From the IMG/VR virus record IMGVR_UViG_3300029258_004290, positions 1-64,000 of that record: 64,000 nt of DNA; one strand, 5' to 3'. The notes beneath the pieces were generated by a model that saw only the letters and a list, made by a program, of their open reading frames with translations, searched no databases and was not told the DNA's origin. Of the stretch, positions 30,118 to 47,747 are shown piece after piece. The position numbers were made by a program, and so were the translations under genes. Numbering within the stretch: position 1 is the stretch's first letter; each line of letters opens with the position of its first letter. The DNA is from a virus.

Positions 30118-30471
30118 ATGGAGGCGAGGCTGACCCTCGACCTGAAGATCCAGGGGACCGGCGCGGCGACGGACCAGCGCCTGGACAAGGTCATAGACTC
30201 CGTGCAGTCGCTCGGGAACGGCCTGACCGTCGTGAAGGACGTGACGGTCGCGACAGGCGGCGGCGACGTGGCGATCGACCTCACGCAGGTCGCCACGGGC
30301 ACGACGCTGCTCGTGAGCGCGCCCGCCGCGCTGAGCGCGAAGGTCAACGGGGGCCCGGCCGTCCAGTTCGGGCGGCTGCTCGTCATGCACTACGATGCGG
30401 CGGTCACGTCCCTGGTCCTGGTCAACGACACCGCGGCCGACGTGACCGCGACCGTGGCGGCGGCGTCGTGA
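30118..30471 (+). CDS. putative virion structural protein (beta-rich)
   Basis: AAGGAGG SD; Thr/Val/Ala-rich; first gene of the late cluster. Confidence 0.55.
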   Translation: MEARLTLDLKIQGTGAATDQRLDKVIDSVQSLGNGLTVVKDVTVATGGGDVAIDLTQVATGTTLLVSAPAALSAKVNGGPAVQFGRLLVMHYDAAVTSLVLVNDTAADVTATVAAAS

Positions 30472-31133
30472 CCGGCCTCAGGATAGGCGGGGAGAGCGAG
30501 CGCCCCCTCTCGCGGGAGCTGGCGCTGCGGGAGGCGCTGATGAAGGCCAGGTCGGGCCTCGTGCGGAAGAAGGTCACGGTCTCCCGCGGCGGCAGGACCT
30601 TCCAGACGACGGTGTGGGCCAGGCCGGATTTGACGGTCAGTGACCTGACCACCAGGCAGTACGAGGGCGTCCGGCGGGTCGTCGACGAGGCGATCGACTA
30701 CGCCAAGGACAAGTACTCGCCGTTTGCCCGCGCCGCGTTCGACAAGTACGTCGCGCACCGCAACAGCGGGCTGCCGCATCGCCAGGCCCTGGCAAGGCTG
30801 CGCGGCTCCCTGCAGAAGGAGCCGGCCGAGGCGGCCAAGAAGGGGGTCGGCGTCCCCAAGGACCTCGACGCGGCCTACGAGGAGAAGTACAAGGTCATGG
30901 AGGCCGCGGAAAAGGAGGCGCTGGCCGTCTTCAAGAAGCGCGGCATGAAGGTGCGCGACATCAGCGACCGCGCCGCCGACCGCCTCTCCGAGAACGTCGG
31001 CGACGAGCTGCAGGGCCTCATGGACAAGATCGACGAGGGAAAGCCCGTGTCCGCCAAGGAATGGAAGGCGGCGAAGGGCCGCGCCCAGGACCGGGGCGTG
31101 GACGCAATCATGGCCGCGATGGGAGAGACGTGA
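30468..31133 (+). CDS. tagged putative internal head protein A
   Basis: LSRELALREALMKA-RSGLVRKKVTVSRGGRTFQTTVWARP plus unique cargo. Confidence 0.7.
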   Translation: MTGLRIGGESERPLSRELALREALMKARSGLVRKKVTVSRGGRTFQTTVWARPDLTVSDLTTRQYEGVRRVVDEAIDYAKDKYSPFARAAFDKYVAHRNSGLPHRQALARLRGSLQKEPAEAAKKGVGVPKDLDAAYEEKYKVMEAAEKEALAVFKKRGMKVRDISDRAADRLSENVGDELQGLMDKIDEGKPVSAKEWKAAKGRAQDRGVDAIMAAMGET

Positions 31134-31765
31134 TGGACATCCGCCGGAAAATGGAGCTGCAAGAGCGCCTGAGGAAGGCCCGGGAGGGGCTGGTGGCCAG
31201 GAAGAAGACGGTCTACCGCAAGGGGAAGGCCGTGCAGACGACGGTGTACGTCAGGCCGGGCGAGAAGAGGGCGGCCGATAAGGAGGCGATCCGGGCCAAA
31301 GCGGGAAAGAAGCTGGCCGGCACAGGTAAAGCCGCGATGGACGCGGCCACAGAGGCGGCAAAACGCGCGTTAGGCGCCGACGCGGTTGTTAAGTACGGGC
31401 TGCGGACTGAGTGGGACAAGAAGCCGGAGTACTATGTGGAGACGAAGGACGCCGTTTATCCCGGCGCCAAGACTCCGGGCAAGGCGGTGGAGTCCGTGGT
31501 TTCCGAGCTCAGAAACCGGGCCGGCGACATGGGCTTTAAGACGATCGGAGAGGTGCTAGTTTACGAGCGGGGCCTCGGCCGGGCTTCGACCTTCGCCAAA
31601 AGGCTGGAAAGGGCCGGTTGGCACGAAGACGACGCGTACGACTTTGCGATCACTGCCTACGACGAGGCCGTCAGCAGGGCCACGAAGGGCGGGAAGTCCA
31701 TGACCGCCGAGGTCGCCAAGAAGGCGGTCGCCGCGGCGGCGAAGGCCGTAGAGGGGGAGGCGTAA
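31133..31765 (+). CDS. tagged putative internal head protein B
   Basis: IRRKMELQERLRKA-REGLVARKKTVYRKGKAVQTTVYVRP plus cargo with more AT-rich codons. Confidence 0.7.
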   Translation: MDIRRKMELQERLRKAREGLVARKKTVYRKGKAVQTTVYVRPGEKRAADKEAIRAKAGKKLAGTGKAAMDAATEAAKRALGADAVVKYGLRTEWDKKPEYYVETKDAVYPGAKTPGKAVESVVSELRNRAGDMGFKTIGEVLVYERGLGRASTFAKRLERAGWHEDDAYDFAITAYDEAVSRATKGGKSMTAEVAKKAVAAAAKAVEGEA

Positions 31766-32319
31766 TGGACCCGCGGAGGGTCCTGGCGAAGTCCCGCTTG
31801 GCCCGCGACGTCGAGGGGCTGCGCAAGGGCGTCTCGGCCAGGCGCCGGGCCAGGCAGGCCGGGGCGGCGGGCACGCTCGGCCTGGCGAGGCAGCGGATGA
31901 CCGGCGCGCCGCGGCCCGCGTTCGCGGCCAGGGTCGCGCTGCCGGGGGAGCGGCGCGAGTGGAAGGCCGGCACGCACCAGAAGACGGCCCAGGGCGGTTG
32001 GGTCAGGGTCGCGAAGACCGGGAGGGGCGCGAGGGTGAAGGGCCCGACGAACATACCGGAGGCGAACGCGATGGTCCGCGAGGCGATGCGGGGGGCGCGG
32101 GTCGTCGCCCGCATGGTCGGCGTGAGGCACGAGTACGCCGTCCGCGTGGGCGAGCGGGACGTGATGGTCGGCGACGACCTCGGGACGCTGGTGCACGCGT
32201 TCCAGCGTGAGCAGAAGAGGAAGGCCAGGGAAGTCAAGACCGCCGTGGACGGGGTGCGCGGCGACGCGTACTCGCCCGTCATGCGGGTGAAAGGAGCCAG
32301 GAATGTCGGCAGGAATTGA
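31765..32319 (+). CDS. tagged putative internal head protein C (type-2 tag)
   Basis: LAKS...LRKG...ALPGERREWKAGTHQKTAQGGWVRV. Confidence 0.6.
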   Translation: MDPRRVLAKSRLARDVEGLRKGVSARRRARQAGAAGTLGLARQRMTGAPRPAFAARVALPGERREWKAGTHQKTAQGGWVRVAKTGRGARVKGPTNIPEANAMVREAMRGARVVARMVGVRHEYAVRVGERDVMVGDDLGTLVHAFQREQKRKAREVKTAVDGVRGDAYSPVMRVKGARNVGRN

Positions 32320-32701
32320 CACCGCGCTGTCGCTGAGGGCGACGCTGCGCAAGGCGAAGGCGATCGGGGGCGGGCGGTTCGGCCTCGTCCGGCAGAAGAG
32401 GACGATCTCCCGCGCCGGGGGGACGTTCCAGACGACCGTCTACGTCCGCCCGGACAGGAAGGAGGCGAGGGCGATCAAGCCGGCGAAGGCCAGCGGCGCA
32501 CCCGGGGTCGCGGCGCAAGCGAAGTCTGACGCGCTGAAGACGCAGAGGGCCCGCAAGGAGCGCTTCGACAAGGTGTACTCCGAGTACAACCAGGCGCTGG
32601 CGAAGCTGAGGCCGACGGACAAGACGGCCGCGGCGGAGACGCTCCGCGCCATGCACCGGGGCCTGCAGCTGGCGAAGAACATCCTAGAGGGAGGCGGCTG
32701 A
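32303..32701 (+). CDS. tagged putative internal head protein D
   Basis: IDTALSLRATLRKA-...GLVRQKRTISRAGGTFQTTVYVRP. Confidence 0.7.
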   Translation: MSAGIDTALSLRATLRKAKAIGGGRFGLVRQKRTISRAGGTFQTTVYVRPDRKEARAIKPAKASGAPGVAAQAKSDALKTQRARKERFDKVYSEYNQALAKLRPTDKTAAAETLRAMHRGLQLAKNILEGGG

Positions 32702-34539
32702 TGAGCATCGAGAGGGAGCTGATCCGGCGCGACGCGCTGCGGAAGGCCCGCCGGGGCTGCGGCGCGGGGAACGCCGTCGCCGGCAGGGGCGGCAGGCCGC
32801 TGACCGAGGAGGAGCGCCGCAGGCGCCACAAGCGCCTGACCGGCGAGGACGAGCCGCCCCCGCGCGGGGCCGGCCGCCGCGAGGGGCTGAGGAAGGCGAG
32901 GGGCCGCGAGGGCCTCACGCCGCAGAAGAAGACCGTCACCAGGGGCGGCAGGACCTTCCAAACGACCGTGTACGTTCGCTCGGGTGAGAAGCCGGCCGGC
33001 GACGGGGGCAAGAAGGACAAGGCCGCCAGGGAAAAGGCCGGCTACGTGTTCCGCAACCGCGCCGCGCGGAGGATCTTCAGCCGAATGGAGAAGTTCGCCC
33101 CGGACCCGTTCGGCAACAAGGCGGACCGCGCGGCGTGGGACGCGGCGGAGAAGGCCTGGGTCGACGCCACGGTCGCCGGGGCCACCAAGACCCCGGCCGA
33201 CGACGCGGCGGTCGCGGCCGCCAAGAAAGCGCGCGCCGCGCACGCCGGCGAGGAGTTCAAGGAGAAGGGCGCGCGGGAGATGAAGTTGTCCGCGGAGGGA
33301 AAGACCGGCGTGAAGCAGGGCGAGGCGGCGGAACCGGCAAAGTGGTCCACGGCGGGGGTCGCCAGGGCCGCCGCGAGGGACGCGGCCAGGAAGATGCTCG
33401 CCGGGGCCAAGGCGGGCCCAAAGGAGTCCGGCGCGGAGGCGGCCGGGCGCCGGGACAGGGAGGCCGAGGCCCTGGCGAAGAAGATCGAGGGCGCGGTCGC
33501 CGCCGAGATCAAGGGCCTGGACCCGAAGAAGTCCGCGACGCTGAGCGCGGCGATGCGCGTCGCCAGGGCGGAGGCGGTCCGGGAGTCCGGCGGCGTCGCC
33601 AGCGCCTCGCAGGCGCGGGACGAGATCGATGACCCCTTCGTGACGGAGGTCAGCCAGGAGATGGGCCTCGAGGTTATGTCCATCCTGGGCATTGAGGAGC
33701 CGGCCGGGAAGTCGTTCGACGAGGCGTACGCCGCCGGCCACAACGCCTACGTCGCGGCGAGGATGGCCGGGCGGTCTGTGAAGCAGGCCGAGGGGGACGC
33801 CGTGTCCGCCGCCGCCGCCATGGCGGAGCGGATGAAGGAGGAGGACCCCTACGACGAGTTCCGGGAGCGGCGGGTCGCCGAGGCGCAGGCGCGGGCGAAA
33901 GGGAAGGCCGGCGGGCCGAAAGCCGCGGCCAGCAAGAAGAAGATGGAAGGCATGACCGTCGGCGAGTGGATGTCCGAGGGCCGCCCGCGGCGCCCGTCGC
34001 CCAGGAAGAGGGGCCCGGCCGCGCCGTGGCTCGGGCCCGCGGAGAAGTCCACGGCCATCGGGCGTGAGCTCGGCCGCAGGGAGGCCCCAAAGGGCGGAAG
34101 GGCCCCATCCAAGGAGAAGGGGACCTATGAGGAAAGGATGCACGCGAAGTTCACGGGCGCGCTCCCGAGGGACGAGCGGCGGGCCGAGTACTACAAGAAG
34201 AACATCAACCGCCTCAAGAATCTGTCGGCGAAGGGCAACGAGACGGCGTGGGAGACGGTCGCCGACATGGAGCTGGACAGGGCCTTCGGCTTCCCGAAGG
34301 GTGTGACCATGCGGATCAGGAAGACCGGCAAGGGCTGGTTCGCCGTCGCGGACGCCACGCGCGTCTCCACCTACAACAAGACGCCGGAGGGGGCGCTCGG
34401 CAGCGCGCTGCATTGGCGGAAGATCGGCCGGACGGAGTATGGCAAGAAGAGGCCAGAGGCCAGGAAGTCCACGGCCATCGGGCGCGAGCTCGGCCGCAGG
34501 GAGGCCCTGCGCAAGGCCAGGCTGAGGGGGCTGATATGA
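32701..34539 (+). CDS. tagged putative internal head protein E (multi-module)
   Basis: IERELIRRDALRKA; EGLRKA-RGREGLTPQKKTVTRGGRTFQTTVYVRS; internal KSTAIGRELGRREA twice. Confidence 0.7.
   Translation: MSIERELIRRDALRKARRGCGAGNAVAGRGGRPLTEEERRRRHKRLTGEDEPPPRGAGRREGLRKARGREGLTPQKKTVTRGGRTFQTTVYVRSGEKPAGDGGKKDKAAREKAGYVFRNRAARRIFSRMEKFAPDPFGNKADRAAWDAAEKAWVDATVAGATKTPADDAAVAAAKKARAAHAGEEFKEKGAREMKLSAEGKTGVKQGEAAEPAKWSTAGVARAAARDAARKMLAGAKAGPKESGAEAAGRRDREAEALAKKIEGAVAAEIKGLDPKKSATLSAAMRVARAEAVRESGGVASASQARDEIDDPFVTEVSQEMGLEVMSILGIEEPAGKSFDEAYAAGHNAYVAARMAGRSVKQAEGDAVSAAAAMAERMKEEDPYDEFRERRVAEAQARAKGKAGGPKAAASKKKMEGMTVGEWMSEGRPRRPSPRKRGPAAPWLGPAEKSTAIGRELGRREAPKGGRAPSKEKGTYEERMHAKFTGALPRDERRAEYYKKNINRLKNLSAKGNETAWETVADMELDRAFGFPKGVTMRIRKTGKGWFAVADATRVSTYNKTPEGALGSALHWRKIGRTEYGKKRPEARKSTAIGRELGRREALRKARLRGLI
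34044..34507 (+). repeat. 44-bp direct repeat (34044-34087 and 34464-34507, 1 mismatch), 420-bp period
   Basis: GAAGTCCACGGCCATCGGGCG(T/C)GAGCTCGGCCGCAGGGAGGCCC at both positions. Confidence 0.9.
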
Positions 34540-35237
34540 CCGCCGACCAGGTCCGGCGCCGGCTGGCGCTTCTCGGGGAGCTGCGGAAGGCGAAGGGCCG
34601 GGCGCACGGCCGCGGCCACCTCGTCCCGCAGCAGAGGACCGTCATCCGCATGGGGAAGCAGGTGCAGACGACCGTGTGGGTGAGTCCGGGGGAGGCCGGG
34701 CCGACCGCGGAGGGCGAGGCGAAGCCGGCGGAGAAGAAGACCGGCGCCGACAAGCCGCAGGCCTCCCCGGTGTGGGAGGGTCCGGCGAAAGGGAGCGCGC
34801 AGTGGTGGGTGAGGCTCCGCCACGAGTGGGACTACTCCGGGCTCGGCCCGAGGGTCGCCGCCGTGCTCGGCAAGGTCGGGGGCGCCTCCGCCGAGGACTA
34901 CGACGCCGCGGAGGGCCGCGTCATGGAGAAGTGGTACGCGGCCTACGATGAGGAGGAGCCGAAGAAAGCGGACCCCGTGGCCATGCGCGCCGCCAGGGCG
35001 GAGGCGAAGAGGCTGGCGAAGCCCGCGCCGAAGAAGGACAAGTTCGCGGAGTGGCAGAAGGCCTCCGACAAGGCGTGGCCCACCGTCGACCGCGTCGCCA
35101 GGGACCACGGCCTGGGCAAGGAGGAGCGCGGCCGGTTCCACACGGAGCTGTCCAATGCGATCATGGAGGGGAAGCCGACCGGCCCGATCGTCGGCAAGTA
35201 CATCCCGAAGAACCCGGCCGTCCGCCACCGCTACTAG
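34536..35237 (+). CDS. tagged putative internal head protein F
   Basis: VRRRLALLGELRKA-...GHLVPQQRTVIRMGKQVQTTVWVSP. Confidence 0.7.
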   Translation: MTADQVRRRLALLGELRKAKGRAHGRGHLVPQQRTVIRMGKQVQTTVWVSPGEAGPTAEGEAKPAEKKTGADKPQASPVWEGPAKGSAQWWVRLRHEWDYSGLGPRVAAVLGKVGGASAEDYDAAEGRVMEKWYAAYDEEEPKKADPVAMRAARAEAKRLAKPAPKKDKFAEWQKASDKAWPTVDRVARDHGLGKEERGRFHTELSNAIMEGKPTGPIVGKYIPKNPAVRHRY

Positions 35238-35402
35238 CAGGCACAACCTGCCCCCCTCGCCCGAAGCCAGGGCCGGGGAGCCAAAATAGCTACAGACTAG
35301 CCCCGCGGGCTCGGACCCGGCGCCGTCGCAGTGGCGCGGCAGCCGGGCAACCGCGCGCGCCCGCAGAGGCGGGCGAGGCGAGCCGGGGGCAAGGAGAGTG
35401 GA

Positions 35403-36449
35403 ATGCTGCCTTCGACAACGACACTGACCGCGAAGCAGCAGGACCGCCTCGACCGCATGTGCCCCGCCGGGCACAACGCGGCGATCGGGACGGTCGTGCG
35501 CGGCGTCCAGACGGACATCGCAGACCTGCTGGGCTCGGCCTACGGGCCGGGGCTCACGCTCTACGTCGACGGGAAGTACGGGTCCGACGACGTCACCGTC
35601 GCCGCCCCGAACCGCTACCCCGCGAGCGCCGTCAACCACGGCACCACGTGGGCCACGGCGTTCAAGACCATCCAGGCCGCCCTGACGGTCGCGAGGGGCG
35701 CGGGCACGGGCTCCAACCCGGCGCTCGACAGCAACTACGACCAGGACCACCACGTCACGGTCGTGGTCGCGCCCGGCAACTACGCCGAGAACCTCATCAT
35801 GGTCGGCGCGGGCATCCGCCTGGTCGGCATCGGGGTCCCCGGCACGGACCGCGGCGTGAGCGTCACGCCCCCGGACATGAGCGGGAGCTACCCCGGGTCG
35901 ATGATCGTCCAGGGGTCCGGGCTCGAGATCGGGAACATCCTGCTCGTCAACAACTTCGCCTACCCGACCATGTGGTTCGACAAGATGCACTCCAGCTGGG
36001 TGCACGACGTCGTCTTCTACGGGGACGGGGACGCGACGAAGGCGTTCACCACGAACGGGATGAAGAACTCGATCCTGGAGCACTGCCGGATCAGCGAGTT
36101 CTCGGCGGCCGGCATCGAGGTCAATTACGACGCCAGTTCGCCCGACTACCTGATCGGGTCCCAGATCCGCCACAACCGGATCGGCCAGGGCTCGGGGACG
36201 GGCATCCTGGTCGACGTCAACCTCGTCGCCTACGACAGCTCGATCTACGACAACACGGTCATCGGGGCCCTGACGCTTGGGATCGACAACAACGCCACCG
36301 GCCCGATCGCGATCCACGACAACTTCGCCTGTATCGTCGACAACACGGCGCCGATCGAGAGCGCCTCGACCATCGGCGGGATGCACCGGAACGCGGTCGT
36401 CTACAACGCCAACGGGACGCGGACGTTCCCGTTCCCGGCGAACGCGTAG
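35403..36449 (+). CDS. putative head fibre/decoration protein with right-handed beta-helix (pectin lyase-like)
   Basis: AAGGAG SD; LYVDGKYGSD...AFKTIQAAL...VAPGNYAE, then IxxNxI beta-helix rungs. Confidence 0.65.
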   Translation: MLPSTTTLTAKQQDRLDRMCPAGHNAAIGTVVRGVQTDIADLLGSAYGPGLTLYVDGKYGSDDVTVAAPNRYPASAVNHGTTWATAFKTIQAALTVARGAGTGSNPALDSNYDQDHHVTVVVAPGNYAENLIMVGAGIRLVGIGVPGTDRGVSVTPPDMSGSYPGSMIVQGSGLEIGNILLVNNFAYPTMWFDKMHSSWVHDVVFYGDGDATKAFTTNGMKNSILEHCRISEFSAAGIEVNYDASSPDYLIGSQIRHNRIGQGSGTGILVDVNLVAYDSSIYDNTVIGALTLGIDNNATGPIAIHDNFACIVDNTAPIESASTIGGMHRNAVVYNANGTRTFPFPANA

Positions 36450-36484
36450 GCGCGCCGGAAGCCCGAGGAAAGGAGAACAGGACA

Positions 36485-36664
36485 GTGAAGACGGAAAAGG
36501 TCCACGACGAGAAGACGGCCGCGGAGGTCGCCGCCGGATTCCGCAAGAGCGGCGTCGGCATGGCCCCCGAGCAGGCCGGGAAGATGTTCCCGCCCCCCTC
36601 CGAGGAGGCGCAGGCCGCGGCGAAGCCCGAGGCCGCGAAGAAGAAGGCCGGCGGGAAGAAGTAG
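36485..36664 (+). CDS. small hypothetical protein
   Basis: AAGGAG SD; contains an FRKS site. Confidence 0.5.
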   Translation: MKTEKVHDEKTAAEVAAGFRKSGVGMAPEQAGKMFPPPSEEAQAAAKPEAAKKKAGGKK

Positions 36665-36873
36665 CACAGCCTTCGGCGCCCCCTTGGGGGGATTGACCGG
36701 GGGGTAGGCATCTAGCACTGCCTCCGGGGCCCGTCCGCGGGCCCCCCTCGCCGCCGCCTCCCCGCGCCCGCCTAGGCCACGGGGACCCGGAACCCGCCGG
36801 ATCGCGGGCCGGGATGCGGGGGGCGGCGAGGAAGACCCGCGGGCCGACAGAACAAAGGAGAGAAGGGGAGAGC

Positions 36874-38502
36874 ATGGCGACCAAGAGCCTGAAGGACATA
36901 GGGAGCCCCGGCAAGCTGCTCGCGCAGCTGACCACCGGCGGCTTCGTCCCGTTCGCGGAGGGCGTGCGCCGGCGCGTGATGCGCGTCAGCTTCGCCGTCC
37001 TCGAGCGGATGGCCGACCGCAACCCGATCGCGAACGCGATCGTCAACAAGCGGTGCCAGCAGGTGCGGCCGTTCTGCCGCGTCTCGACCGACCCCGCGGA
37101 GAGGGGCTTCTCCATCCAGCCGAAGTCCGGCCTCACGCCGAAGATGAAGGAGGGGAAGAAGCCGCGGCGCATCGTCGAGCTCGAGGACTTCGTGATGAAC
37201 ACGGGGTTCGCCTACGAGCCCGACAGGGAGGACGACTTCCCGGACTTCGCGCAGATGCTGGTCCGCGACGTCCTCACCTTCGACCAGAACGCGACGGAGC
37301 TGCGCAGGACGAACGCCGGCAAGGTCTTCGACTACTGGTACATCGACCCGACGACCATCGCCCGCGCCGTCCCGATCGGGGGCGGCCAGGTGCACCACCC
37401 CTCGCCCGCGCCGGTCGGCGGGAAGGGCGCGGCATCGGCCACGCTCCGCTCCTGGATGGAGAGGGCGCGGGGCCCCAAGGGCCGGGACGTGCGCTTCGTG
37501 CAGCGCGAGCTGCAGAACAACCGGACGAAGATCACCGCGACGTTCACCGCGGAGAACATGATCTTCGACTACATGTACAAGAGGAGCCGGCAGCAGTACC
37601 GGGGCTACGGCTACTCGCCGCTCGAGCAGTGCATCGACACGGTGACCACGCTCCTGTTCGGACTCACCTACAACAAGGACCTCTTCATACGCGAGCGCCT
37701 GCCCAAGGGCTTCCTCAAGGTCATGGGCGACGTCGACGCGGCGACGCTCCGGGCGGTGAAGAACGCCTGGGTCGCGGAGATGACCGGCTACGGGGCGAAG
37801 TTCCGCGTGCCGATCATCCCCTCCGGCAAGGAGGGCGTCGGGATCGACTGGCAGGCGCTCGGCCAGTCCAACCGCGACATGGAGTACACCAAGCTCCTCC
37901 ACCTCATCATTTCCATCATGTGCGCCGTCTTCACCATCGACCCGATTGAGATCGGGATCAAGACGGACCTCGCGCCCCAGGGCCTCGGGCACTCCGGCAC
38001 TAAGCCGAAGATCGAGGAGAGCAAGGACACCGGGCTCGGCGCGCTCCTCATGTACATCGAGACCTACATGAACAAGATCCTCCACAAGGTGGACGAGGAC
38101 GTCGTCTTCAAGTTCACCGGCGTGAAGGAAGGGGACGCCAAGAAGAAGGCGGAGCTGCGGGAGATGCAGATCAAGCAGAGCCGGAGCGTCGACGACTTCC
38201 GCCGAGCCGACGGCCTCGAGCCCTACGAGGAGCTGTGGAGCAGCATCCCGCTGCGGCCCGAGATCGTGCAGCTGGTCCAGGCCGAGAAGCAGGAGCAGCA
38301 GATGGCCGCGATGGGCGGCGGGGCGCAGCCCGGCGGCGGGGAGGAACCCGCGGACGAGGGCGGGGACGGCGGCGAGGGCGGCCGGTTCTCCTGGGAGGTC
38401 GGCGAGGGGGACGCCGAGCTCGAGGGCGGGGCCGCGGAGAAGTCGCTAGCCTCCCTCGAGGACGCGCTCTTCAAGGGCGGGCCGTTGGAGGTCGTCATCT
38501 GA
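36874..38502 (+). CDS. portal protein
   Basis: AIVNKRCQQV, RDVLTFDQ, IDPTTI, GYGYSPLE, PKGFL, NRDMEY, IDPIEIG (HK97/SPO1-like portal). Confidence 0.9.
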   Translation: MATKSLKDIGSPGKLLAQLTTGGFVPFAEGVRRRVMRVSFAVLERMADRNPIANAIVNKRCQQVRPFCRVSTDPAERGFSIQPKSGLTPKMKEGKKPRRIVELEDFVMNTGFAYEPDREDDFPDFAQMLVRDVLTFDQNATELRRTNAGKVFDYWYIDPTTIARAVPIGGGQVHHPSPAPVGGKGAASATLRSWMERARGPKGRDVRFVQRELQNNRTKITATFTAENMIFDYMYKRSRQQYRGYGYSPLEQCIDTVTTLLFGLTYNKDLFIRERLPKGFLKVMGDVDAATLRAVKNAWVAEMTGYGAKFRVPIIPSGKEGVGIDWQALGQSNRDMEYTKLLHLIISIMCAVFTIDPIEIGIKTDLAPQGLGHSGTKPKIEESKDTGLGALLMYIETYMNKILHKVDEDVVFKFTGVKEGDAKKKAELREMQIKQSRSVDDFRRADGLEPYEELWSSIPLRPEIVQLVQAEKQEQQMAAMGGGAQPGGGEEPADEGGDGGEGGRFSWEVGEGDAELEGGAAEKSLASLEDALFKGGPLEVVI

Positions 38503-38503
38503 C

Positions 38504-40333
38504 ATGAGGCCCCTGACCCTCATACCCAGGCCGCGCAGCGCCCTGAGGAAGGCGTTCGGCAAGCAGGCCGACCCCGACTTCACGGTCAAGCGCTTCTCCG
38601 ACGGCAACTATCACATGAAGGTCCCCGGCAAGGGGTGGATGAAGCTCGGCAAGGACCGCGCGCGGGCGGAGGAGTTCGCCAGGAAGCGCAGGGCAGGCGG
38701 CGGCGAGAAGCCGCAGGCCAAGGTCGGCCAGACCGTCCGCATCAGGGGGAGCGGCCGCGGGTCGCTCGGCCGGGGCGTCGTGGGGAAGATCAAGGAGATA
38801 GGCCAGGGGTTCGTGCGCGTGGCGGACGAGGCGGGGCGCGTGTTCCGCGTCAAGACGCCCGCGCTCGCCCTGGCCAAGGCCGCGCCGCCCCCCGAGCCCG
38901 GGCCGTCGGGCCCCCTCGCGCTGTACAAGGCGCGGCCCGGGCTGGTGCGCCAGGCGCGCCTGGCCGCGCGGGGCGGCCGGACGTTCCGGACCCACGTGTG
39001 GGTGAGGCCCGGCGATCGCCCGGCCGCGGCGGGGGGCTCCCGCGCCGCCGCCGTCAAGGAGTGGCTGAAGAGCCGCTCCTCCCTCGAGGTCGAGACGCTG
39101 TCGCCGGCCGAGGCGGCGTCGGTCCTCAACTCCCTCGGGACGGACCCGGACCGCCTGCACGCGGCCAGGGAGCCGGCGAACGCCGCGCACGCCGTCGGCA
39201 GGATCGCCGCGTCCGCCCTCGTCCGCCGGGCCGCGGGGCAGGACCTCTCCGCATTCCGCTCCCGCCTCGAGGACCTCGAGAGGGCCACCGGCGACGCGGT
39301 GTGGAACATGGACATCCGCGAGGAGGCGACCCTCTACGACCCCTCCTCCTCCGAGGAGGACGTGGCCTACGCCATGATGGGCGCCTGGGGCAGCTCCACC
39401 AACAAGGTGGCGGCAGTGATGCTGCAGGAGGCCGCGGCGGAAGAGTTGCTGGGGGTAACCAAGTTCCGCGTCTGGCAACGGCACAACATGCCGGCGGTCA
39501 GGGACGAGGAGGCCAGGAGGCTGGAGGCCGAGGTAGTCCGCGCGCAGAAGGCCTGGCAGGTGACGCCCGCCAACACCCCCGAGTCTGCGGCGGCCTTCGA
39601 CGAGCTGGACGGGCGGAGGGCGGCGCTGCACCGCCATCAAGACGCGGCACGGGCCAGCGGCACGAGGGCCTACGTGCCCCCGGAGGTGTTCGCCAGGGCG
39701 CGCCGCGCCGTCCGCGCCATGTGGGGGCGGACCCAGGAGGAGCTCCGCACGAGGCCCCCGTGGTCCCTCGAGGCCCAGGGAAGGGAGCGGGCGTGGCGCG
39801 TGGCCTGCAACACGGCGGCGATCCGGCTGCAGGACGTCCCGGGGTCCGCCGACGTGCTGGCGCGAATGGCGACGGCCGGCTCCAACGCGGCCGCCACGAT
39901 GCGGGACTACTTCGGGGAGGTACCGGCCGACTGGTCCTCCCCGTCGGCGGAGGCCCCACGGCGGGTGCTGGCGGAGGCGCATTCGCTCATGGCCGGCGCC
40001 GTGGAGGAGGGGCGCGACCCGTTCGACGAGGAGACGTTCCGCCGGTGCGCGGCAGCCGTGGCGGAGGAGCTGACGCGGAAGCGGCCGTTGCTGCTGTATC
40101 GGGGCGTGACGCAGGACACCGTCGCCGGCAACGTCGTGGAGAGCTGGTCCACGTCGCGGAGCGTCGCCCGGCAGTTCGACGGCTACGACATCCTCGAGGA
40201 CGCCGGCGTGCCGTACGGCCGGATCCTCGCGTTCTGGGGGTCCGACAGCAAGCTGGCCAGGAACAACCTGCACCACGGGGAGAAGGAGTTCCTGCTGCTG
40301 TTTGACGACCCGGGAGAGGGCGGCCGGCCGTGA
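38504..40333 (+). CDS. tagged polyvalent head protein G with C-terminal ADP-ribosyltransferase-like domain
   Basis: LRKA plus type-2 tag; KOW/SH3-like segment; LYKA plus type-1 tag; LYRG...ESWSTS...EKE. Confidence 0.72.
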   Translation: MRPLTLIPRPRSALRKAFGKQADPDFTVKRFSDGNYHMKVPGKGWMKLGKDRARAEEFARKRRAGGGEKPQAKVGQTVRIRGSGRGSLGRGVVGKIKEIGQGFVRVADEAGRVFRVKTPALALAKAAPPPEPGPSGPLALYKARPGLVRQARLAARGGRTFRTHVWVRPGDRPAAAGGSRAAAVKEWLKSRSSLEVETLSPAEAASVLNSLGTDPDRLHAAREPANAAHAVGRIAASALVRRAAGQDLSAFRSRLEDLERATGDAVWNMDIREEATLYDPSSSEEDVAYAMMGAWGSSTNKVAAVMLQEAAAEELLGVTKFRVWQRHNMPAVRDEEARRLEAEVVRAQKAWQVTPANTPESAAAFDELDGRRAALHRHQDAARASGTRAYVPPEVFARARRAVRAMWGRTQEELRTRPPWSLEAQGRERAWRVACNTAAIRLQDVPGSADVLARMATAGSNAAATMRDYFGEVPADWSSPSAEAPRRVLAEAHSLMAGAVEEGRDPFDEETFRRCAAAVAEELTRKRPLLLYRGVTQDTVAGNVVESWSTSRSVARQFDGYDILEDAGVPYGRILAFWGSDSKLARNNLHHGEKEFLLLFDDPGEGGRP

Positions 40334-43300
40334 AGCGCCGCGCGCTCCGGGGCCTCGGCGGCCGGCGGGTGGAGGTCCTGACGCCCGAGACCGAGGCCGA
40401 CGCGGCCCGCCTCGCCTCCGCGGCGGCGGCGGGGGAGGCCGACGGCCGCGCCTCGTTCGGCGACGGGCGCCCCCTGCGCAAGGCCCGCCGCGGGATGGTG
40501 CTGGGTAGGCGCGGCCGCCTGGTCCCCGAGAAGCGGACCGTCACCCGCGGCGGCAGGACGTTCCAGCAGACGGTGTGGGTCCGGCCGGGCGAGAGGCCGA
40601 AGGCGCCGGCAACGGCGGCCGCGGTGGCAAGGGCGATCGAGCCCGTCGTGGCCGAGGTGAAGCGCATGGCCCCGAAGTGGCTGGCCTTCCGGCAGCAGGG
40701 AGAGCCCGCCTGGGGCGGCAAGCGGAAGAAGGAGACGGCCGCGGGCCTCGCCAGGTCCGCGATGCACGACTGGGACATCGGCAAGCAGGTGACGGCGATC
40801 CTCCGGAAAAGACCGAGGCTGGCGGCGGCGTTCTTCAACGACATGGAGGGCGTCAACCGCGAGCTGAAGAGGCAGACCGGGCTCGCGATGGACTACGCCC
40901 GCTTCGGCGAGATTGACCTGCTGGACACGATGAAGGCGGCGGCCGCCTCCGGTGAGAGCCTCGCCGGGTTCCGCGCGCAGGCGAAGGGGCTCGGCGAGAG
41001 GTACGACAAGGGCCGGATCATCGACAACCCGCGCTACGACCGCGGGCTGCGGTGGGTCGCCACCATGCACGACCCGACCTCGACGACCGAGGAGATCCAG
41101 CACGCGATGCTCGCGCAGTGGGAGCGTGGCGGCCTCGGGGCGAACGCGGTCACGCACCAGATCGTGCAGAGCGCGTTCGCCGGCAAGCCGGTCCGGGACG
41201 CGGGCATCCCCGACGTTATGGTGGAGAAGGCGAAGCACGCTGTCCTCGACCTGTATCGCCGGACCCAGGACGCGCTGCGCGCCAGGGGCGAGAAGAAGAT
41301 CCGCCTCTATCGCGGCGTACAGACGATGGCGGGCGGCAACATCCTCGAGAGCTGGACCCCGGACGAGGAGATGGCCACGTTCTTCGCCAACATCGGCAAG
41401 TTCAAGGGCAAGGTCCGGCGCGGGAACATCCCGGCCGCGCGCGTCCTGGCGACGTACGACACGCCGCCGGGCGAGGGCATCCTCCGCGACAATGAGCAGG
41501 AGTACATGGTCCTGACCAAGCGGCCCGACGCGTTCGGCAAGAGCATGGCGTGGATCCTGGAAAAGGCTCGAGCCGGCCTGGTGCAGCGCGAGGTCCAGGT
41601 CAAGGGGCGGCGCAGGTTCTACTTCGCGAAGCGCTGGGTGAAGGTCGGGCCGGAAGAGGACGACCTGGAGCCGATGGCGCTCTCCACCATGCCGAAGCCG
41701 GTCGGCTACATCACGCCGTCGGGGAACGTCCGCCGGCTGAGCAAGGCGGGCAGGTACGGCTGGGGCAAGGCGTCGAGGGCGCAGCTCGAGCGCTGGCGCG
41801 ACGTCATCACCGGGAAGGCTGCGCCGGAGACCGAGGCGGAGCGGCTCGGCCGCCGGGAGTACGAGGCCGGCGAGTACGGCGGCACGCCGCCGGGGTACGA
41901 GCACAAGCATGGCAAGATGCCAGACGGGAGCCCGCCGCCCGGGGACGGGAGCAGGGCTACGCCGGAGCGGATGCTCGCGGAGTGCCCGAAGATCGGCGAG
42001 GCGCTGCGGAACATGGCCGGGCCCTGGGACTACCTGGGGTCGCACGGCGACCAACGGATGTTCTTCGACGCGTACTCGGGAAAGGACGCCGTCCCGGTCG
42101 AATACCAGGACCGCTTCTGCCAGGACTACGAGTTCGCGTTCAAGACCTGGCGCGCCGCGGCCCCTGACGGGAGCCCGCGAAGGGGGATCCCGACGCCGCA
42201 CGAGCTCGTCTCCAAGCTGCCCGGGGTCAAGGGCGTGCTCGGCCGGCTGAAGGGCGCGCAGGTGAAGAAGGCGGCGAAATGGCTGTGGGACCACCTGGCG
42301 TCGGTCGCGTGGGGCAGCTTCGTCAAGGGCGTGAAGACCGTGACCGAGGCGCAGCGCGCCCAGGCCGACGCGTGGATCGCGGCCTTCAAGGACCCGGAGG
42401 GGATGGGCATCTCGTACGCCGGGGCCCGCGCGCTCGCCCTCTACTCCGACGCGTGCCACCGGGAGGCGGAGGCGCAGAGCTACACGAAGCAGCGGACGAA
42501 GCGCCTGGTCGCGGGGATGAAGAACGCGGAGGGCTACGACTTCGCCGGCAGGCAGATCACGCCGAAGGAGGCGAAGGGGATCGACGCCATGCTCGGCCGG
42601 ATAAGGGGCCTGGTGCCGAGCGCGAACCGCCTGGCCACGGCGTGGCAGCTGCGGGTCAACGTCATCGCGCTCGGGTCGATCAAGGGGCCGACGGGCCAGG
42701 GCGTCGCGGGCCAGTACTGGCCCGACCTCGGGCCGGAGGACGCCGCCGGCGAGCCGGAAACCTGGCGGAAGAGGGGCGTCAAGTCCCGCGAGCTGGACCT
42801 GGACTACAAGCACACCTACGCGGTCGCGCACGAGCTCATGCACTCGTGGGACGACGCGGCGAAGAAGGGCATCGCCGTTGACCCGGGCGCCGGCGCCCCG
42901 AAGGCCAGGGGCTCCATTGGCTGGAAGTTCCGCGAGCTGATGGGCGACGCCATGGTGGAGAACGGCACGCTCGCCCGGTGGTACCGCTTCGGCACGGACG
43001 CGGCCATACCGACGACCGCGAACGAGCGAGAGTACCGCGACGCGTCCGATAAGCTGGCCTACGCGGTCGGCGAGCCGGAGGCCTCGATCACCGCGCAGCT
43101 CGTGCGTTTCACCCACACGAAGCACGGAAGCCGCGTCAAGACCCTCGACGCCGTGAGCAAGGCGTTCCGGAAGGCTGCCACGGAGGCGGGCCTGACGGAG
43201 AGCGAGAGCGGCGTGTTCTGGAAGGACGTGCGTCACACGTGGGAGGCGCGGCGGTCGCCCTTCGCCCGGCTGGTCCGCACCAAGTACGGGACGCGCAAGG

Positions 43301-45084
43301 AGACCGTCTACGAGACCCTGCAGCGCGAGAAGAACTCCGGCGCGTACCTCTGCAGCACGGCGGAGTATACGGCGCGGTTCTTCGAGCAGTACGCCGCGTG
43401 GAAGCACCGCGGCAAGGAGATCGACGGGCCGGCCGGGTTCCTCAAGTGGGAGCGGTACCTCCGGCGGTCGCACTACTTCACCGAGGCGGAGTTCAAGGCG
43501 CTGCTCCCCCACTTCAAGGCCGCGTGCAGGGAGCGGATGGGCGAGAAGTTCCTCAAGTCGCTCCTCCGCCGGCTCACGCTGCTCCTGAAGGGCAAGGGCT
43601 TCCCGGTCGGGACCATCCGGAAGATGGCCGGCCTGTGGCACAAGAAGCTCCCGACCGGGAAGTGGTGGCCGCTGAAGAAGGACGAGGTGAAGGCGCACGA
43701 GGCCATGCTCAAGGAGAAGGGCCTCCTGAAGCCGGGCGAGGAGCAGAAGCCGCGCAGGCGGAAGAAGAAGGGCGAGGCGCAGGACAAGGCGCCGCCGCCC
43801 CCGCCGGGGCCGGTCGGCGAGATGGCCGCCGCGATCGTGAAGAACAACCCGAGCGCCGGCAGGATCAAGCCGACGCCGGGGGCGACGTCCCAGAACTACG
43901 CCGTCCCCTACGACTACGGCCAGCTCCTCGCCGAGTACACGAAGGACGACCCGGACCTCGCGGCGTCCGTGCTCAACGACCTCGAAGGGACGATGCGCGC
44001 CATCGCCCAGGCGTCGGGCGGCGTGAGCCCCCCGAACAGCGGCGCCTTCGCCGCGCTTCTCAACCGCATCACCGACTCAAACCTGCAGGCGATGCTGCTG
44101 GCCGCCCACAAGGGCGGGAAGTCGCTCGCCGGCCTCCGGGCGAAGATGCCGGCGTACGCGAAGCTCACCGGCAACAAAGAGTGGGACCTGCAGCGGAGGG
44201 AGTGGGCGACGTGGCCCGACCCGATGTCATCCAGGCAGGACGTCCACTACGCCATGCTCGGCGCCTGGGGCTCTAGCTCCGGGAAGCCGGGCGCGGTGCT
44301 GCTGCAGCAGACGGTCGGCGAGGTGCTCCTCGGGCGGAAGCCGTTCATCTGGCAGCACCTCGTGGCGAAGAAGGGCAAGGGCGGCAAGTTCCCCATCCAC
44401 CCGAAGGTGCGCGAGACCGCGAAGGACGCGGTGCGCTGGCTGTACGCGCAGACGCAGCGGAGGCTCAAGGAGGTCGATGACATCAAGACGCTCCAGGACC
44501 TGGACTACAGGGGCAAGGACGCCGCCGCCCTGATGGACGCGGTCGGCGCGGAGCTCACGAGGGACATGCCGCCCGGCGACGCCAAAACCAAGCGCCTGGA
44601 GATCTACGCCGAGGTCGCCAAGTCGCTGCCGCGGGAGTACCCGACCTTCTTCGTATCCGAGCAGAACACCGTGCAGGTCATGCAGGCGATCGTGGCGATC
44701 GCCGCGGAACCGCTCAAGGCGGCCGGCCTGGACCAGCCGTACGGCATCGAAGTGACCGTCAGGAACGCGCTCAGGAAGGCCATGAAGGGGACGGCGGCGA
44801 AGGCCGGGTCGAAGGACAGGCTGGTCCTGTTCCGCGGCGTCAAGGCCCCGACCGTCGCGCGCAACGCCGTCGAAAGCTGGACCCGCCGCAAGTCCACCGC
44901 CGACAGCTTCGACCACCACAAGGTGTTCCGCGAGGAGGTCCCGCTCTCGCAGATCCTTGCGTTCCCCAAGACCGACAGCAAGCTCGCGGCGAACGAGGGC
45001 AAGTACGGAGAGGACGAGTTCCTCCTCCTAGCCACACCACCGCTCGAGCACCTGGCCACGCAGGCCAAGGAGGCGCACTCATGA
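40330..45084 (+). CDS. large polyvalent head protein H: ART-like + zincin metallopeptidase-like + ART-like
   Basis: LYRG/ESWT/EQE (41308-41502); HELMH (42829-42843) with downstream EYTARFFEQY; LFRG/ESWT/EDE (44830-45018); each module preceded by a K|A/S/G site and a tag. Confidence 0.75.
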   Translation: MKRRALRGLGGRRVEVLTPETEADAARLASAAAAGEADGRASFGDGRPLRKARRGMVLGRRGRLVPEKRTVTRGGRTFQQTVWVRPGERPKAPATAAAVARAIEPVVAEVKRMAPKWLAFRQQGEPAWGGKRKKETAAGLARSAMHDWDIGKQVTAILRKRPRLAAAFFNDMEGVNRELKRQTGLAMDYARFGEIDLLDTMKAAAASGESLAGFRAQAKGLGERYDKGRIIDNPRYDRGLRWVATMHDPTSTTEEIQHAMLAQWERGGLGANAVTHQIVQSAFAGKPVRDAGIPDVMVEKAKHAVLDLYRRTQDALRARGEKKIRLYRGVQTMAGGNILESWTPDEEMATFFANIGKFKGKVRRGNIPAARVLATYDTPPGEGILRDNEQEYMVLTKRPDAFGKSMAWILEKARAGLVQREVQVKGRRRFYFAKRWVKVGPEEDDLEPMALSTMPKPVGYITPSGNVRRLSKAGRYGWGKASRAQLERWRDVITGKAAPETEAERLGRREYEAGEYGGTPPGYEHKHGKMPDGSPPPGDGSRATPERMLAECPKIGEALRNMAGPWDYLGSHGDQRMFFDAYSGKDAVPVEYQDRFCQDYEFAFKTWRAAAPDGSPRRGIPTPHELVSKLPGVKGVLGRLKGAQVKKAAKWLWDHLASVAWGSFVKGVKTVTEAQRAQADAWIAAFKDPEGMGISYAGARALALYSDACHREAEAQSYTKQRTKRLVAGMKNAEGYDFAGRQITPKEAKGIDAMLGRIRGLVPSANRLATAWQLRVNVIALGSIKGPTGQGVAGQYWPDLGPEDAAGEPETWRKRGVKSRELDLDYKHTYAVAHELMHSWDDAAKKGIAVDPGAGAPKARGSIGWKFRELMGDAMVENGTLARWYRFGTDAAIPTTANEREYRDASDKLAYAVGEPEASITAQLVRFTHTKHGSRVKTLDAVSKAFRKAATEAGLTESESGVFWKDVRHTWEARRSPFARLVRTKYGTRKETVYETLQREKNSGAYLCSTAEYTARFFEQYAAWKHRGKEIDGPAGFLKWERYLRRSHYFTEAEFKALLPHFKAACRERMGEKFLKSLLRRLTLLLKGKGFPVGTIRKMAGLWHKKLPTGKWWPLKKDEVKAHEAMLKEKGLLKPGEEQKPRRRKKKGEAQDKAPPPPPGPVGEMAAAIVKNNPSAGRIKPTPGATSQNYAVPYDYGQLLAEYTKDDPDLAASVLNDLEGTMRAIAQASGGVSPPNSGAFAALLNRITDSNLQAMLLAAHKGGKSLAGLRAKMPAYAKLTGNKEWDLQRREWATWPDPMSSRQDVHYAMLGAWGSSSGKPGAVLLQQTVGEVLLGRKPFIWQHLVAKKGKGGKFPIHPKVRETAKDAVRWLYAQTQRRLKEVDDIKTLQDLDYRGKDAAALMDAVGAELTRDMPPGDAKTKRLEIYAEVAKSLPREYPTFFVSEQNTVQVMQAIVAIAAEPLKAAGLDQPYGIEVTVRNALRKAMKGTAAKAGSKDRLVLFRGVKAPTVARNAVESWTRRKSTADSFDHHKVFREEVPLSQILAFPKTDSKLAANEGKYGEDEFLLLATPPLEHLATQAKEAHS

Positions 45085-45725
45085 GGCTCATAGTCTTCAC
45101 CAAGGCGAAGAAGGAGACCGCCCCCTCGTCCCGGCCGCCGAAGGGCTGGTGGGAGAGGGTCACGGCCGCTCTCGGGGGGGAGAAGGGCGTCAAGTCGGTC
45201 CGCCGCCTCGCCGGCTGGATTTGGTACCACGGGATCAAGACCGGCAAGGGCCGCCAGGAGCGGCGGAAGGCCGAGGGGAAGACGTACCGGTGGCGCGAGG
45301 GCGAGAAGAAGAAGGGCACCAGGAAGTCCCTGGCCGCGGTCTTCTCGCCGTCCGCGATGCGTAAGTCCCGTGTCGGCGAGGAGGACTTCGGCAAGAAGTT
45401 CGCGGCCCTGGTCAAGAAGGGCGACCTGTCCGACGAGACGTTCCACGCCTGGGCCAAGCGCCAGGGCTGGGACGAGCACCGGGCCGAGGAGGCCGCGTAC
45501 CGGATGCTCGCGTCCTTCCTGGGTGGCGGACTCGCCAGGAAGAAGGGCTTCACCGAGAAGGACGCCGACCCGAAGGAGCTCCGCCTGGGCGTCAAGGTCG
45601 AGATGGAGCACACCAACTCCAGGTGGATCGCGAAGCGCATCGCGCTCGACCACCTGGCCGAGAACCCGCGGTACTACTCCGAGGTCCTCCTGCCGGCCGA
45701 GAAGAGGGCGGGGTCAGCGCACTGA
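45081..45725 (+). CDS. putative head protein with DUF5661-like C-terminal domain
   Basis: DPKELRLGVKVEMEHT...AKRIALDHLAENPRYY; FTKA, TRKS and MRKS sites. Confidence 0.6.
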   Translation: MRLIVFTKAKKETAPSSRPPKGWWERVTAALGGEKGVKSVRRLAGWIWYHGIKTGKGRQERRKAEGKTYRWREGEKKKGTRKSLAAVFSPSAMRKSRVGEEDFGKKFAALVKKGDLSDETFHAWAKRQGWDEHRAEEAAYRMLASFLGGGLARKKGFTEKDADPKELRLGVKVEMEHTNSRWIAKRIALDHLAENPRYYSEVLLPAEKRAGSAH

Positions 45726-45967
45726 TGCCGCTGGCCGGAGGAAAGGAGCCCACCGGGAAGGACAAGGCCCGGTGGGAGGAGGCGAAGGCCGCGGCCCGGA
45801 AGAAGGGGCTGAAGGGCGATCGCTTCTGGGCGTACGCGAACTCGATCTACCAGACCCGCGCCGGGCGGAAGTCTTGGGCCGATGACCTCGAGGCGCACCA
45901 CCGCTTCAAGTACGGCGAGCCCGGGGTCACGCGCATACGCTTTTACGTGAGGAGGGGCATCCATTGA
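45725..45967 (+). CDS. small putative head protein
   Basis: RWEEAKAAARKKG...FWAYANSIY...GRKS; TGATG coupling. Confidence 0.55.
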   Translation: MPLAGGKEPTGKDKARWEEAKAAARKKGLKGDRFWAYANSIYQTRAGRKSWADDLEAHHRFKYGEPGVTRIRFYVRRGIH

Positions 45968-46191
45968 AGCGGCACAAGGTGCTCGCCTGGGACGGCGGCA
46001 CGGTCGAGGTCGTCGAGGCGGAGAACGAGAGGGACGCGGCGGAGATCCTGAGGGGGGTCAGGTCCGGCGCGATCGACGGGCGTGCGAGCCACGCGGACAT
46101 GAGGGAGTCCGTGCGGCGCGGCGAGCTCGGCAGGTCGCACCCGACGGGGCCGACCCGGCGGCTGACGATCCGGCGCAAGCGGCGCCGCTAG
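45964..46191 (+). CDS. hypothetical protein
   Basis: GAGGAGG SD; TTGA coupling. Confidence 0.5.
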   Translation: MKRHKVLAWDGGTVEVVEAENERDAAEILRGVRSGAIDGRASHADMRESVRRGELGRSHPTGPTRRLTIRRKRRR

Positions 46192-47357: not shown

Positions 47358-47747
47358 ATGTCGAACCAATGGAAAAAGGATCATCCCGAGAAGGCGCGCG
47401 AGATTGGAAGGGCGGCGTCCGCCCGCTTTCGCGTTAAGCATCCGCGCCGGCACAAGGACCAGTACATCCGCTGGAAATACGGTATCAGTTTGAAGGAGTT
47501 TGAGACCCTGCTCAAGGCTCAGGGGTATTGCTGCGCTATTTGTGGTGGCAATCTACGTGGGCGGCGGAGAAAGAACATCGACCACGACCATGAGACCGGT
47601 GAAGTGCGCGGGGTCCTCTGCTATGCCTGTAACTTGATGCTCGGGTTTGGGCGGGATAACCCGGAAACCCTGAGGCGCGCTGCGAAATATCTCGAAGCCG
47701 AGAAAGGGTCCGTCCTCTGGCTGGTAAGGAGCGAGGCCAATGGATAA
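47358..47747 (+). mobile_element. free-standing endonuclease VII-family (HNH-like) putative homing endonuclease gene
   Basis: YGISLKEF...QGYCCAICG...[37 protein letters not shown]; visibly lower GC than flanks. Confidence 0.8.

Follow-up and report, generated by a model that had tools for sequence, protein, structure and literature searches.

Why do seven proteins encoded around the portal gene of an uncultured phage share one short basic motif, each time a few residues behind the tetrapeptide L-x-K-A, and what might this pairing do? The phage is IMG/VR record IMGVR_UViG_3300029258_004290, a complete genome of 86,914 bp with direct terminal repeats, and the stretch analysed here (hereafter, the window) is its first 64 kb (64,000 nucleotides). 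A preliminary description of the window had proposed that an N-terminal leader addresses these proteins to the prohead, that the head protease removes the leader, and that the retained hairpin tethers the cargo. We find that the site and the hairpin behind it constitute a widespread, uncatalogued two-part unit, here called the cassette, which is not private to the source phage. On balance, we lean towards a mechanism in which the prohead protease cleaves upstream of the hairpin, which remains on the product and loads the cargo into the head or holds it there.

Copies of the cassette in the source phage

A six-frame regular-expression search for the hairpin core gave exactly seven matches in the window, all on the + strand and one per open reading frame (ORF); the F/V positions of their 'FQTTV' segments are 30600, 31232, 32426, 32956, 34662, 38984 and 40561. 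A profile of leader plus tag, searched against the whole genome, returned the same seven and an eighth copy at 41518-41655 (62-83 bits, with E values of 1e-18 to 1e-24, for the eight), one leader-only copy at 34480-34536, and no further matches. The earlier count of eight copies in seven proteins around the portal is thus borne out. The hairpin comprises ~24 residues with the consensus GLVxKKVTVxRGGKTFQxTVWVxP, is basic (charge +3 to +7), and is preceded by L-x-K-A at a distance of 2-11 residues in all eight copies (LMKA, LRKA five times, LYKA and LEKA), likewise as first described. The eighth copy had been regarded as degenerate; it proved to belong, as a typical member, to a variant subfamily (VQVKG..G.Y.A.RWV) with further members in unrelated metagenomic proteins. 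The copies have only 64% DNA identity and encode the same residues by different codons, which indicates that selection at the protein level keeps them, and rules out an origin of the repeat by recent DNA duplication or gene conversion.

The tagged ORFs are as follows (a slash marks the predicted cut):

30468..31133, + strand: tagged ORF 1, 221 aa, pI (isoelectric point) 9.7; LMK/A at residues 24-27, hairpin at nt 30555-30626
31130..31765, + strand: tagged ORF 2, 211 aa; LRK/A at residues 14-17, hairpin at nt 31187-31258
32303..32701, + strand: tagged ORF 3, 132 aa, pI 11.2; LRK/A, hairpin at nt 32381-32452
32701..34539, + strand: tagged ORF 4, 612 aa; LRK/A at residues 63-66, hairpin at nt 32911-32982
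34539..35237, + strand: tagged ORF 5, 232 aa; LRK/A at residues 15-18, hairpin at nt 34617-34688
38504..40333, + strand: tagged ORF 6, 609 aa; LYK/A at residues 140-143, hairpin at nt 38939-39010
40330..45084, + strand: tagged ORF 7, 1584 aa, polyvalent-like; two cassettes

The tag region of ORF 2 matches phrog_1917 ('virion structural protein'). ORF 4 additionally has a leader-only site at residues 13-16 and a truncated C-terminal cassette (nt 34480-34536). In ORF 6, a conserved N-terminal module is followed by the cassette and then by helical and putatively ADP-ribosyltransferase (ART)-like cargo with conserved R, S and E. The order in ORF 7 is the first cassette (LRK/A at residues 49-52, hairpin at nt 40516-40587), a putative ART-like module, the second cassette (variant subfamily; LEK/A at residues 410-413, hairpin at nt 41575-41646), an HExxH module, and another putative ART-like module.

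The sequences downstream of the hairpins had been described as mostly unrelated. This is only partly correct: the 609-aa ORF is homologous to the final third of the 1584-aa ORF (E 2e-36), and several small tagged ORFs have a weak A/K/E-rich similarity. We regard the assignment of ART-like modules to the two large ORFs as a lead only. R, S-W and E are invariant in six sequences, which comprise the cargo modules of both ORFs and foreign modules; a Pfam match of the cargo to DRAT is sub-threshold (E 0.0064); and its Atlas feature neighbours, which are lead-level, include DRAT (0.93), ADPrib_exo_Tox and Mod_ADP_RT. Pfam at its thresholds did not support an ART assignment, nor did Foldseek and VIA, whose matches were only generic and helical, and an AlphaFold2 model of the cargo module reached a predicted local distance difference test (pLDDT) score of only 68. 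Neither the two ART-like modules nor the HExxH motif of the 1584-aa ORF is above a Pfam cut-off. The sole match in the window to a hallmark domain of polyvalent proteins (see below) is a weak one to LPD22 (19.7 bits vs a cut-off of 28.6); LPD22 was also considered as the family of the tag, and was rejected on this score and because the match begins inside the second strand. The five smaller tagged ORFs are A/K/E-rich and basic, with no recognised domain. Tagged proteins of this phage have pI values of 9.7-11.2, and none of the seven contains a MuF-like region, the MuF-like protein being encoded by a separate gene (46215-47309).

Several further observations concern the architecture of these ORFs. 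The 612-aa ORF ends with a leader, LRK/A, 'RLRGLI' and a stop codon (34480-34539), at the point where the next tagged ORF starts, and this truncated terminal cassette looks like the remnant of an event in which cargo genes were split or fused. A frameshift or read-through joining the ORFs at 32701-34539 and 34539-35237 was rejected upon inspection of the frames. The peptide STAIGRELGRREA is present twice in the 612-aa ORF. A second short motif, K.(P/T)GKGW..(V/L), occurs in four ORFs: at 34291-34380 (612-aa ORF, residue ~531), 43582-43700 (1584-aa ORF, residue ~1085), 38543-38690 (N-terminus of the 609-aa ORF) and 31765-32319. It lies directly after a hydrophobic-x-K-[AG] site in three of these ORFs and ~45 residues later in the fourth (the sites are FPK/G, LLK/G, LRK/A and LRK/G), and is a candidate for another junction tag. 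Residues 24-126 of the 609-aa ORF, its N-terminal module, share 54% identity with a module inside the giant protein P0008. Residues 1-76 of the 1584-aa ORF (40330-40557) are 38% identical (E 4e-7) to an entire 75-aa ORF at 45964-46191, which is a stand-alone copy of this pre-cassette leader domain. The ORF at 45081-45725 contains a DUF5661 domain (E 3e-10) and an N-terminal FTK/A, with no hairpin; DUF5661 is also found within a cassette-bearing polyvalent protein (P0005) and a tagged ORF of another IMG/VR record (G016).

The lysine site and the prohead protease

The source is an uncultured SPO1-type phage. The GC content of the window is ~69%, every gene is on the + strand, and a tail sheath gene (60255-61991) assigns the phage to the myoviruses. 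Its head block is arranged as follows:

26450-28255, + strand: large terminase
30468-35237, + strand: five tagged ORFs
35331-36449, + strand: beta-helix protein
36814-38502, + strand: portal of the SPO1 type, ~30% identical to Spounavirinae portals
38504-45084, + strand: two large tagged ORFs
46215-47309, + strand: MuF-like head-morphogenesis protein
47358-47747, + strand: endonuclease VII-like ORF (phrog_2914, E 5e-32)
47740-48612, + strand: prohead (head maturation) protease (phrog_1028)
48620-49498, + strand: scaffold-like acidic protein, pI 4.5
49534-50925, + strand: major capsid protein of the SPO1/Herelleviridae type (phrog_752), with predicted maturation site LQK30/A31

The tetrapeptide before the hairpin recurs where a head protease would be expected to act. 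A hydrophobic-x-Lys motif stands directly before the conserved N-terminus of the mature capsid protein in all eight phages examined (LQK/A, LQK/A, LNK/A, LMK/A, ILK/A, LIK/A, LNK/A and ALK/S). This position accords with structural data on a staphylococcal relative of the capsid protein: PDB entry 5lii contains a 463-aa precursor, and the 439-aa chain of 9row, 9rox and 9roz starts right after Lys24 of 5lii, which aligns with K30 of the capsid protein encoded in the window. A similar junction is found within the prohead protease in four of five phages examined. In the window's protease it is VIK/GLTAGYGTD, resembling the capsid junction, and this protein has 7 hydrophobic-x-K-[AGS] sites vs 1.5 expected.

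The same sites crowd the scaffold. That of the source phage has 8 (1.3 expected; none of 1000 shuffles reached 8), and the scaffold ORFs of six of seven phages tested have 8-14 sites where ~1-1.6 would be expected (0/1000 shuffles), the exception being P100. The motif is thus over-represented 6-10 fold in scaffolds of the lineage, and capsid, portal and terminase showed no excess in the same test. Similarly, L-x-K-A occurs 18 times in the head block of the source phage (4.05 expected, a 4.4-fold excess) and 8 times elsewhere in its genome (8.2 expected).

In our reading, proteases of this type cut by the rule hydrophobic-x-Lys followed by Ala, Ser or Gly. The site in the cassette is the same as the capsid maturation junction of SPO1/Herelleviridae-type protease substrates, a correspondence that had been proposed from the capsid protein of this phage and to which the junctions and motif-filled scaffolds above lend weight. 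Given these matches and the crowding of sites in scaffolds, the prohead protease (47740-48612) most probably cuts the tagged proteins at the cassette site.

The portal itself ends in DALFK/GGPLEVVI (38470-38502), which places a hydrophobic-x-K-G site 8 residues from its C-terminus, so trimming of the portal tail by the protease is possible. The endonuclease VII-like ORF (47358-47747) follows the MuF-like gene and precedes that of the prohead protease, possibly as a mobile, homing-type insertion. The window also encodes two right-handed beta-helix proteins (35331-36449 and 53852-55051), the first of which has tagged cargo genes on one side and the portal gene on the other, an unexpected location for a tailspike-like fold.

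Distribution of the cassette among proteins and phages

The preliminary description had suggested that a profile would reveal how diverse the cargo is and whether the tag co-occurs with this head type. Searched against 1.84 billion representative proteins, such a profile found the cassette in 262 protein clusters (E<=1e-3), with diverse cargo; its genomic setting, described below, ties it to the head modules of SPO1-type phages. Cluster proteins have 1-4 copies. Many are 1000-2600 aa long with 2-4 cassettes, each ahead of a different domain; the domains behind cassettes include ART-PolyVal, zeta toxin, RadC, NUDIX, DNA ligase, LPD1, SNF2/strawberry-notch helicase and 2'-5' RNA ligase/Acb1-like domains. 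Many small carriers have a cassette at the extreme N-terminus, before a zeta toxin, ADP-ribosyltransferase or inositol-phosphatase domain. As had been suspected, the tag is not a named family: no Pfam model spans the cassette, although PHROGs 1917 ('virion structural protein') and 4162 take in part of it. A PDB sequence search found no chain that contains it.

A diverse alignment shows an invariant Lys, an Ala conserved at over 90%, and a spacer of variable length between Lys and hairpin; across the family, 2-12 residues separate K-A from the hairpin. A hydrophobic-x-K-[AGS] site lies at most 16 residues upstream of 171 of 200 foreign hairpins vs a background of 11%, an association (86%) that is inflated by ascertainment, as the query profiles contained the K-A site. 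Leaders in these 171 cases measure at most 10 residues (54 cases), 11-30 (46), 31-60 (17) or over 60, in which case the site is internal (54). The family has no conserved sequence ahead of hydrophobic-x-K-A, and some hairpins, as in an 869-aa protein of Bacillus phage YungSlug and a 909-aa ORF of IMG/VR record G013, start at residue 3-5 with neither leader nor site. Only the hairpin is conserved in every carrier. This, together with the site-free N-terminal hairpins, suggests that it is the functional core of the cassette, independent of cleavage.

These data bear on the idea that the leader is the address. On this account, the leader helix would direct proteins to the prohead and later be removed, as in phage T4, and the hairpin would merely tether the cargo to DNA or portal. 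A similar helix (RELxxRxxLRKA) does precede most copies in the source phage, and the internal proteins of T4 work in this way (PMC9026906). However, the leader is not conserved outside the source phage. Leaders of 0 to several hundred residues occur, and for polyvalent proteins an entire upstream enzyme domain stands in the 'leader' position. We therefore give little credence to this part of the preliminary description. Since the hairpin is conserved and would be retained while the leader varies, the hairpin is the better candidate for an address.

The giant proteins suggest another explanation, in which the hairpin serves processing only: it would present a polyprotein junction for cutting by the prohead protease or by a zincin peptidase of the protein itself, and loading would be achieved by a MuF-like domain or by co-assembly. 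Two giant relatives (P0008 and P0014) indeed begin with a MuF-like domain, which is followed by several cassette-separated modules, the 1584-aa ORF has an HExxH module, and Iyer et al. proposed autoprocessing of polyvalent proteins. Yet most carriers are single-module proteins with neither MuF nor peptidase, a hairpin that stands at the extreme N-terminus has nothing in front of it to be separated from, and capsid and scaffold sites work without a hairpin. We consider a pure processing role to be quite unlikely.

The genomes that encode the cassette were located in several ways. Exact back-translated patterns gave 0, 0 and 1 matches, after which a degenerate DNA pattern proved productive: it matched 16 IMG/VR records, with true tags in nine. 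These nine have several adjacent tagged ORFs (up to six copies per record) that adjoin an SPO1-type portal gene and a MuF-like homologue, with protease and capsid genes nearby. A phrog_752 capsid gene is present in four of the nine vs none of eight chance-pattern records, and the five tag-positive records lacking it are fragments, estimated to be 13-31% complete. In GTDB genomes the pattern matched six times, and three of these matches are real tags: one on a contig of a Spirochaetales metagenome-assembled genome that also contains a portal and a MuF-like gene, and two in Gammaproteobacteria and Thermoplasmatales assemblies, where only tagged ORFs were seen.

A tblastn search of cultured phages with one ORF of the window found no match, and the queries P0021 and P0002 matched in cargo domains only. 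Cultured carriers surfaced only through P0081 and profile searches of individual records:

Bacillus phage YungSlug: gp74, directly after the terminase
Bacillus phage YungSlug: 869-aa 'PARP polymerase' directly upstream of the portal, hairpin from residue 3
Nachito and Lysinibacillus LysYB1: homologue of the YungSlug 869-aa protein
Shanette (Siminovitchvirus, the genus of CP-51): five copies, in gp87, gp88 and gp90 just before the portal, in the ParB-like gp68, and one more
Exiguobacterium vB_EalM-132: five copies
SPO1-genus phage SPO1L1: 144-aa lysine-rich ORF (ORF8) directly upstream of the portal

LysYB2, which was outside the tag scan, also encodes a homologue of the YungSlug 869-aa protein, and the tag of P100 is marginal. 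In cultured Spounavirinae, the cassette is located just upstream of the portal, and the carriers are annotated as hypothetical proteins. We found no description of the cassette in the literature, and no virion proteomics for the cultured carriers. The ParB-like 'partition' proteins Shanette gp68 and its homologue in EalM-132 have an internal cassette (loci L041, 1-2756, and L049, 2378-5449), which suggests that they are head-packaged polyvalent proteins of the ParB-nuclease type, and not partition factors.

Role of the hairpin and comparison with known systems

In an AlphaFold2 model based on a 22-sequence alignment (mean pLDDT 83), a helix runs up to K-A and a hairpin of two strands, with a pLDDT of ~91, comes after it. 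Foldseek found no significant match for the tag; the RNA-binding hairpin of ribosomal protein S7 came up repeatedly but weakly (E ~1), and we treat this likeness as a lead only. This model could be taken to mean that the cassette is an uncleaved mini-domain, in which the hydrophobic stretch up to K-A, as a helix or a third strand, and the hairpin form one fold that binds nucleic acid or condenses head DNA, and the likeness to the capsid site is coincidental. In favour of this, K-A is invariant even behind only 3-6 residues, the helix that it ends directly adjoins the hairpin, the hairpin is strongly charged and several carriers have lysine-rich tails (SPO1L1 ORF8, Shanette gp90), and the S7 likeness would fit. 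A single fold is harder to reconcile with a spacer of 2-12 residues and with hairpins that lack any K-A, and coincidence is harder to reconcile with the same motif at capsid and protease junctions and its excess in scaffolds. We thus judge an uncleaved mini-domain to be unlikely.

The basic beta-ribbon and its S7 likeness, as well as the many host-directed enzymes to which the hairpin is joined, are also compatible with a role in the host, where the hairpin would dock injected enzymes on nucleic acid or the ribosome and have no part in assembly. However, the hairpin also heads small, lysine-rich, non-enzymatic proteins beside the portal, and is tightly linked to one head type and a head-protease motif. 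A role confined to the host is very improbable in our view.

The link to one head type, the location of the genes beside the portal, and the combination of basic hairpins and carriers with an acidic scaffold favour a role in loading or retention in the prohead, and the cassette is probably a mark of proteins destined for the capsid. In the mechanism that we favour, the prohead protease would cut at the first part of the cassette, inside the prohead, and the second part, the hairpin 2-12 residues downstream, would stay as the new N-terminus of the product. During prohead assembly the hairpin would dock the basic cargo on a conserved internal component of the head (the partner could be the acidic scaffold core, the inner face of the capsid, the portal or DNA), and afterwards it would lie with the DNA. 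The cassette would thereby carry two instructions, one to cut and one to retain the resulting piece in the head. In the source phage, the cargo would consist of two proteins with ART-like modules, one of which also has HExxH, and five A/K/E-rich basic proteins; in relatives, the cassette separates effector domains of giant proteins that start with a MuF-like domain.

Several points count against this mechanism, in addition to the ascertainment noted above. Some phages of the SPO1 type (Goe26, Staphylococcus phage phiSA_BS1, Pseudomonas phage Jeremy and Chryseobacterium phage MA9V-3) have no tag, so this head type does not require it. The copies in Shanette gp68 and YungSlug gp74 are separated from the portal gene by 15-29 kb. 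In many family members the leader has only 3-6 residues, for which cutting seems pointless. The binding partner of the hairpin is a guess, and the PHROG label 'virion structural protein' is the only hint that tagged proteins are virion parts. Lastly, the ART assignment of the phage's own cargo consists of motifs, a sub-threshold DRAT match and Atlas leads, the fold searches being uninformative. A stronger version of our reading is that the hairpin is a portable, self-sufficient signal for capsid loading and co-ejection in SPO1-type myoviruses, such that any cargo behind a cassette is packaged, trimmed and delivered. This is conceivable, but we consider it doubtful.

Among known systems, the cassette-bearing proteins recall polyvalent proteins, which combine ART, zincin peptidase, zeta toxin, NUDIX and helicase domains, are encoded beside portal and MuF genes, and have been proposed to be packed into the head and injected (Iyer et al. 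2017, PMC5512222; Iyer et al. 2022, PMC9503650). The gene setting expected of such proteins is found here, as the tagged ORFs flank the portal gene and the MuF-like, protease, scaffold and capsid genes follow downstream, and relatives of the window's proteins contain ART-PolyVal, LPD1 and zeta toxin domains. On the other hand, many cassette carriers are single-module genes and not giant fusions, and the ORFs in the window are below Pfam thresholds for hallmark domains. The 'plug-in effector platform' of the preliminary description overlaps this published concept (PMC5512222, PMC9503650), but text searches of these two papers turned up no reference to a junction cassette.

The internal proteins IPI-III and Alt of T4 are likewise unrelated, injected head proteins with a short N-terminal signal tied to cutting by the prohead protease (gp21), and Alt is an ART. 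The T4 address, however, is a peptide of ~10 residues that is removed, and cutting occurs at L/I-x-E. Here, sequences upstream of the site are unconserved, leaders range from 0 to over 60 residues, and the conserved 24-residue hairpin lies after the cut and would be retained. The site, moreover, is hydrophobic-x-Lys, with cutting predicted after Lys, in the setting of a phrog_1028 protease and an SPO1-type capsid.

Polymorphic toxins fused to MuF and minor head proteins of the SPP1 gp7 type resemble the present system in that swappable cargo is placed on a head-incorporation module beside the portal; a MuF-like gene is syntenic here. The cassette is, however, only ~35 residues long vs ~100-300 for MuF, and several may occur in one protein. 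An N-terminal MuF on the cargo itself is absent from the source phage, and such fusions were found only in P0008 and P0014. Outside the viruses, the cargo-loading peptides of encapsulins are also short and portable, and bring cargo of many kinds to the inside surface of a shell with the HK97 fold, but they are C-terminal, unstructured and unlinked to proteolysis.

In phiKZ-like phages such as SPN3US, many ejected head proteins are processed by the prohead protease at one motif (PMC5694885, PMC7411985, PMC10052503). That motif is A/S/G-x-E, whereas the one described here ends in Lys, and in those phages long propeptides are removed and no shared, retained hairpin has been described. The Dar proteins of P1 (DarA, Hdf, DarB and DdrB; PMC9024508, PMC12810830) are head-packaged, partly protease-processed and injected counter-defence proteins, but are loaded through the Dar hierarchy, with no common peptide tag known. 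The present system thus resembles the T4, phiKZ-like and polyvalent sets, and differs from them in the predicted cut after Lys, in a conserved element that lies behind this cut and would be retained, and in a hairpin that can recur within one polypeptide.

Mechanistic detail on how effectors are loaded into capsids is known only for T4 and, partly, for P1 and phiKZ-like phages, and the loading of polyvalent proteins has so far been a matter of conjecture. The cassette would provide a concrete rule of loading and processing for SPO1-type phages, based on unrelated enzymes in hundreds of clusters, one head type, and a cutting motif common to capsid and scaffold. Because SPO1L1, Shanette and YungSlug are cultured Bacillus phages, this rule is directly testable. 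If it is correct, injected effectors could be recognised in metagenomes by their cassette, and the cassette could be fused to proteins as a tag to have them packaged into phage particles. If the hairpin is, beyond this, a portable signal, it would explain how polyvalent proteins are packaged and would be a natural protein-delivery tag, testable in Bacillus subtilis phages.

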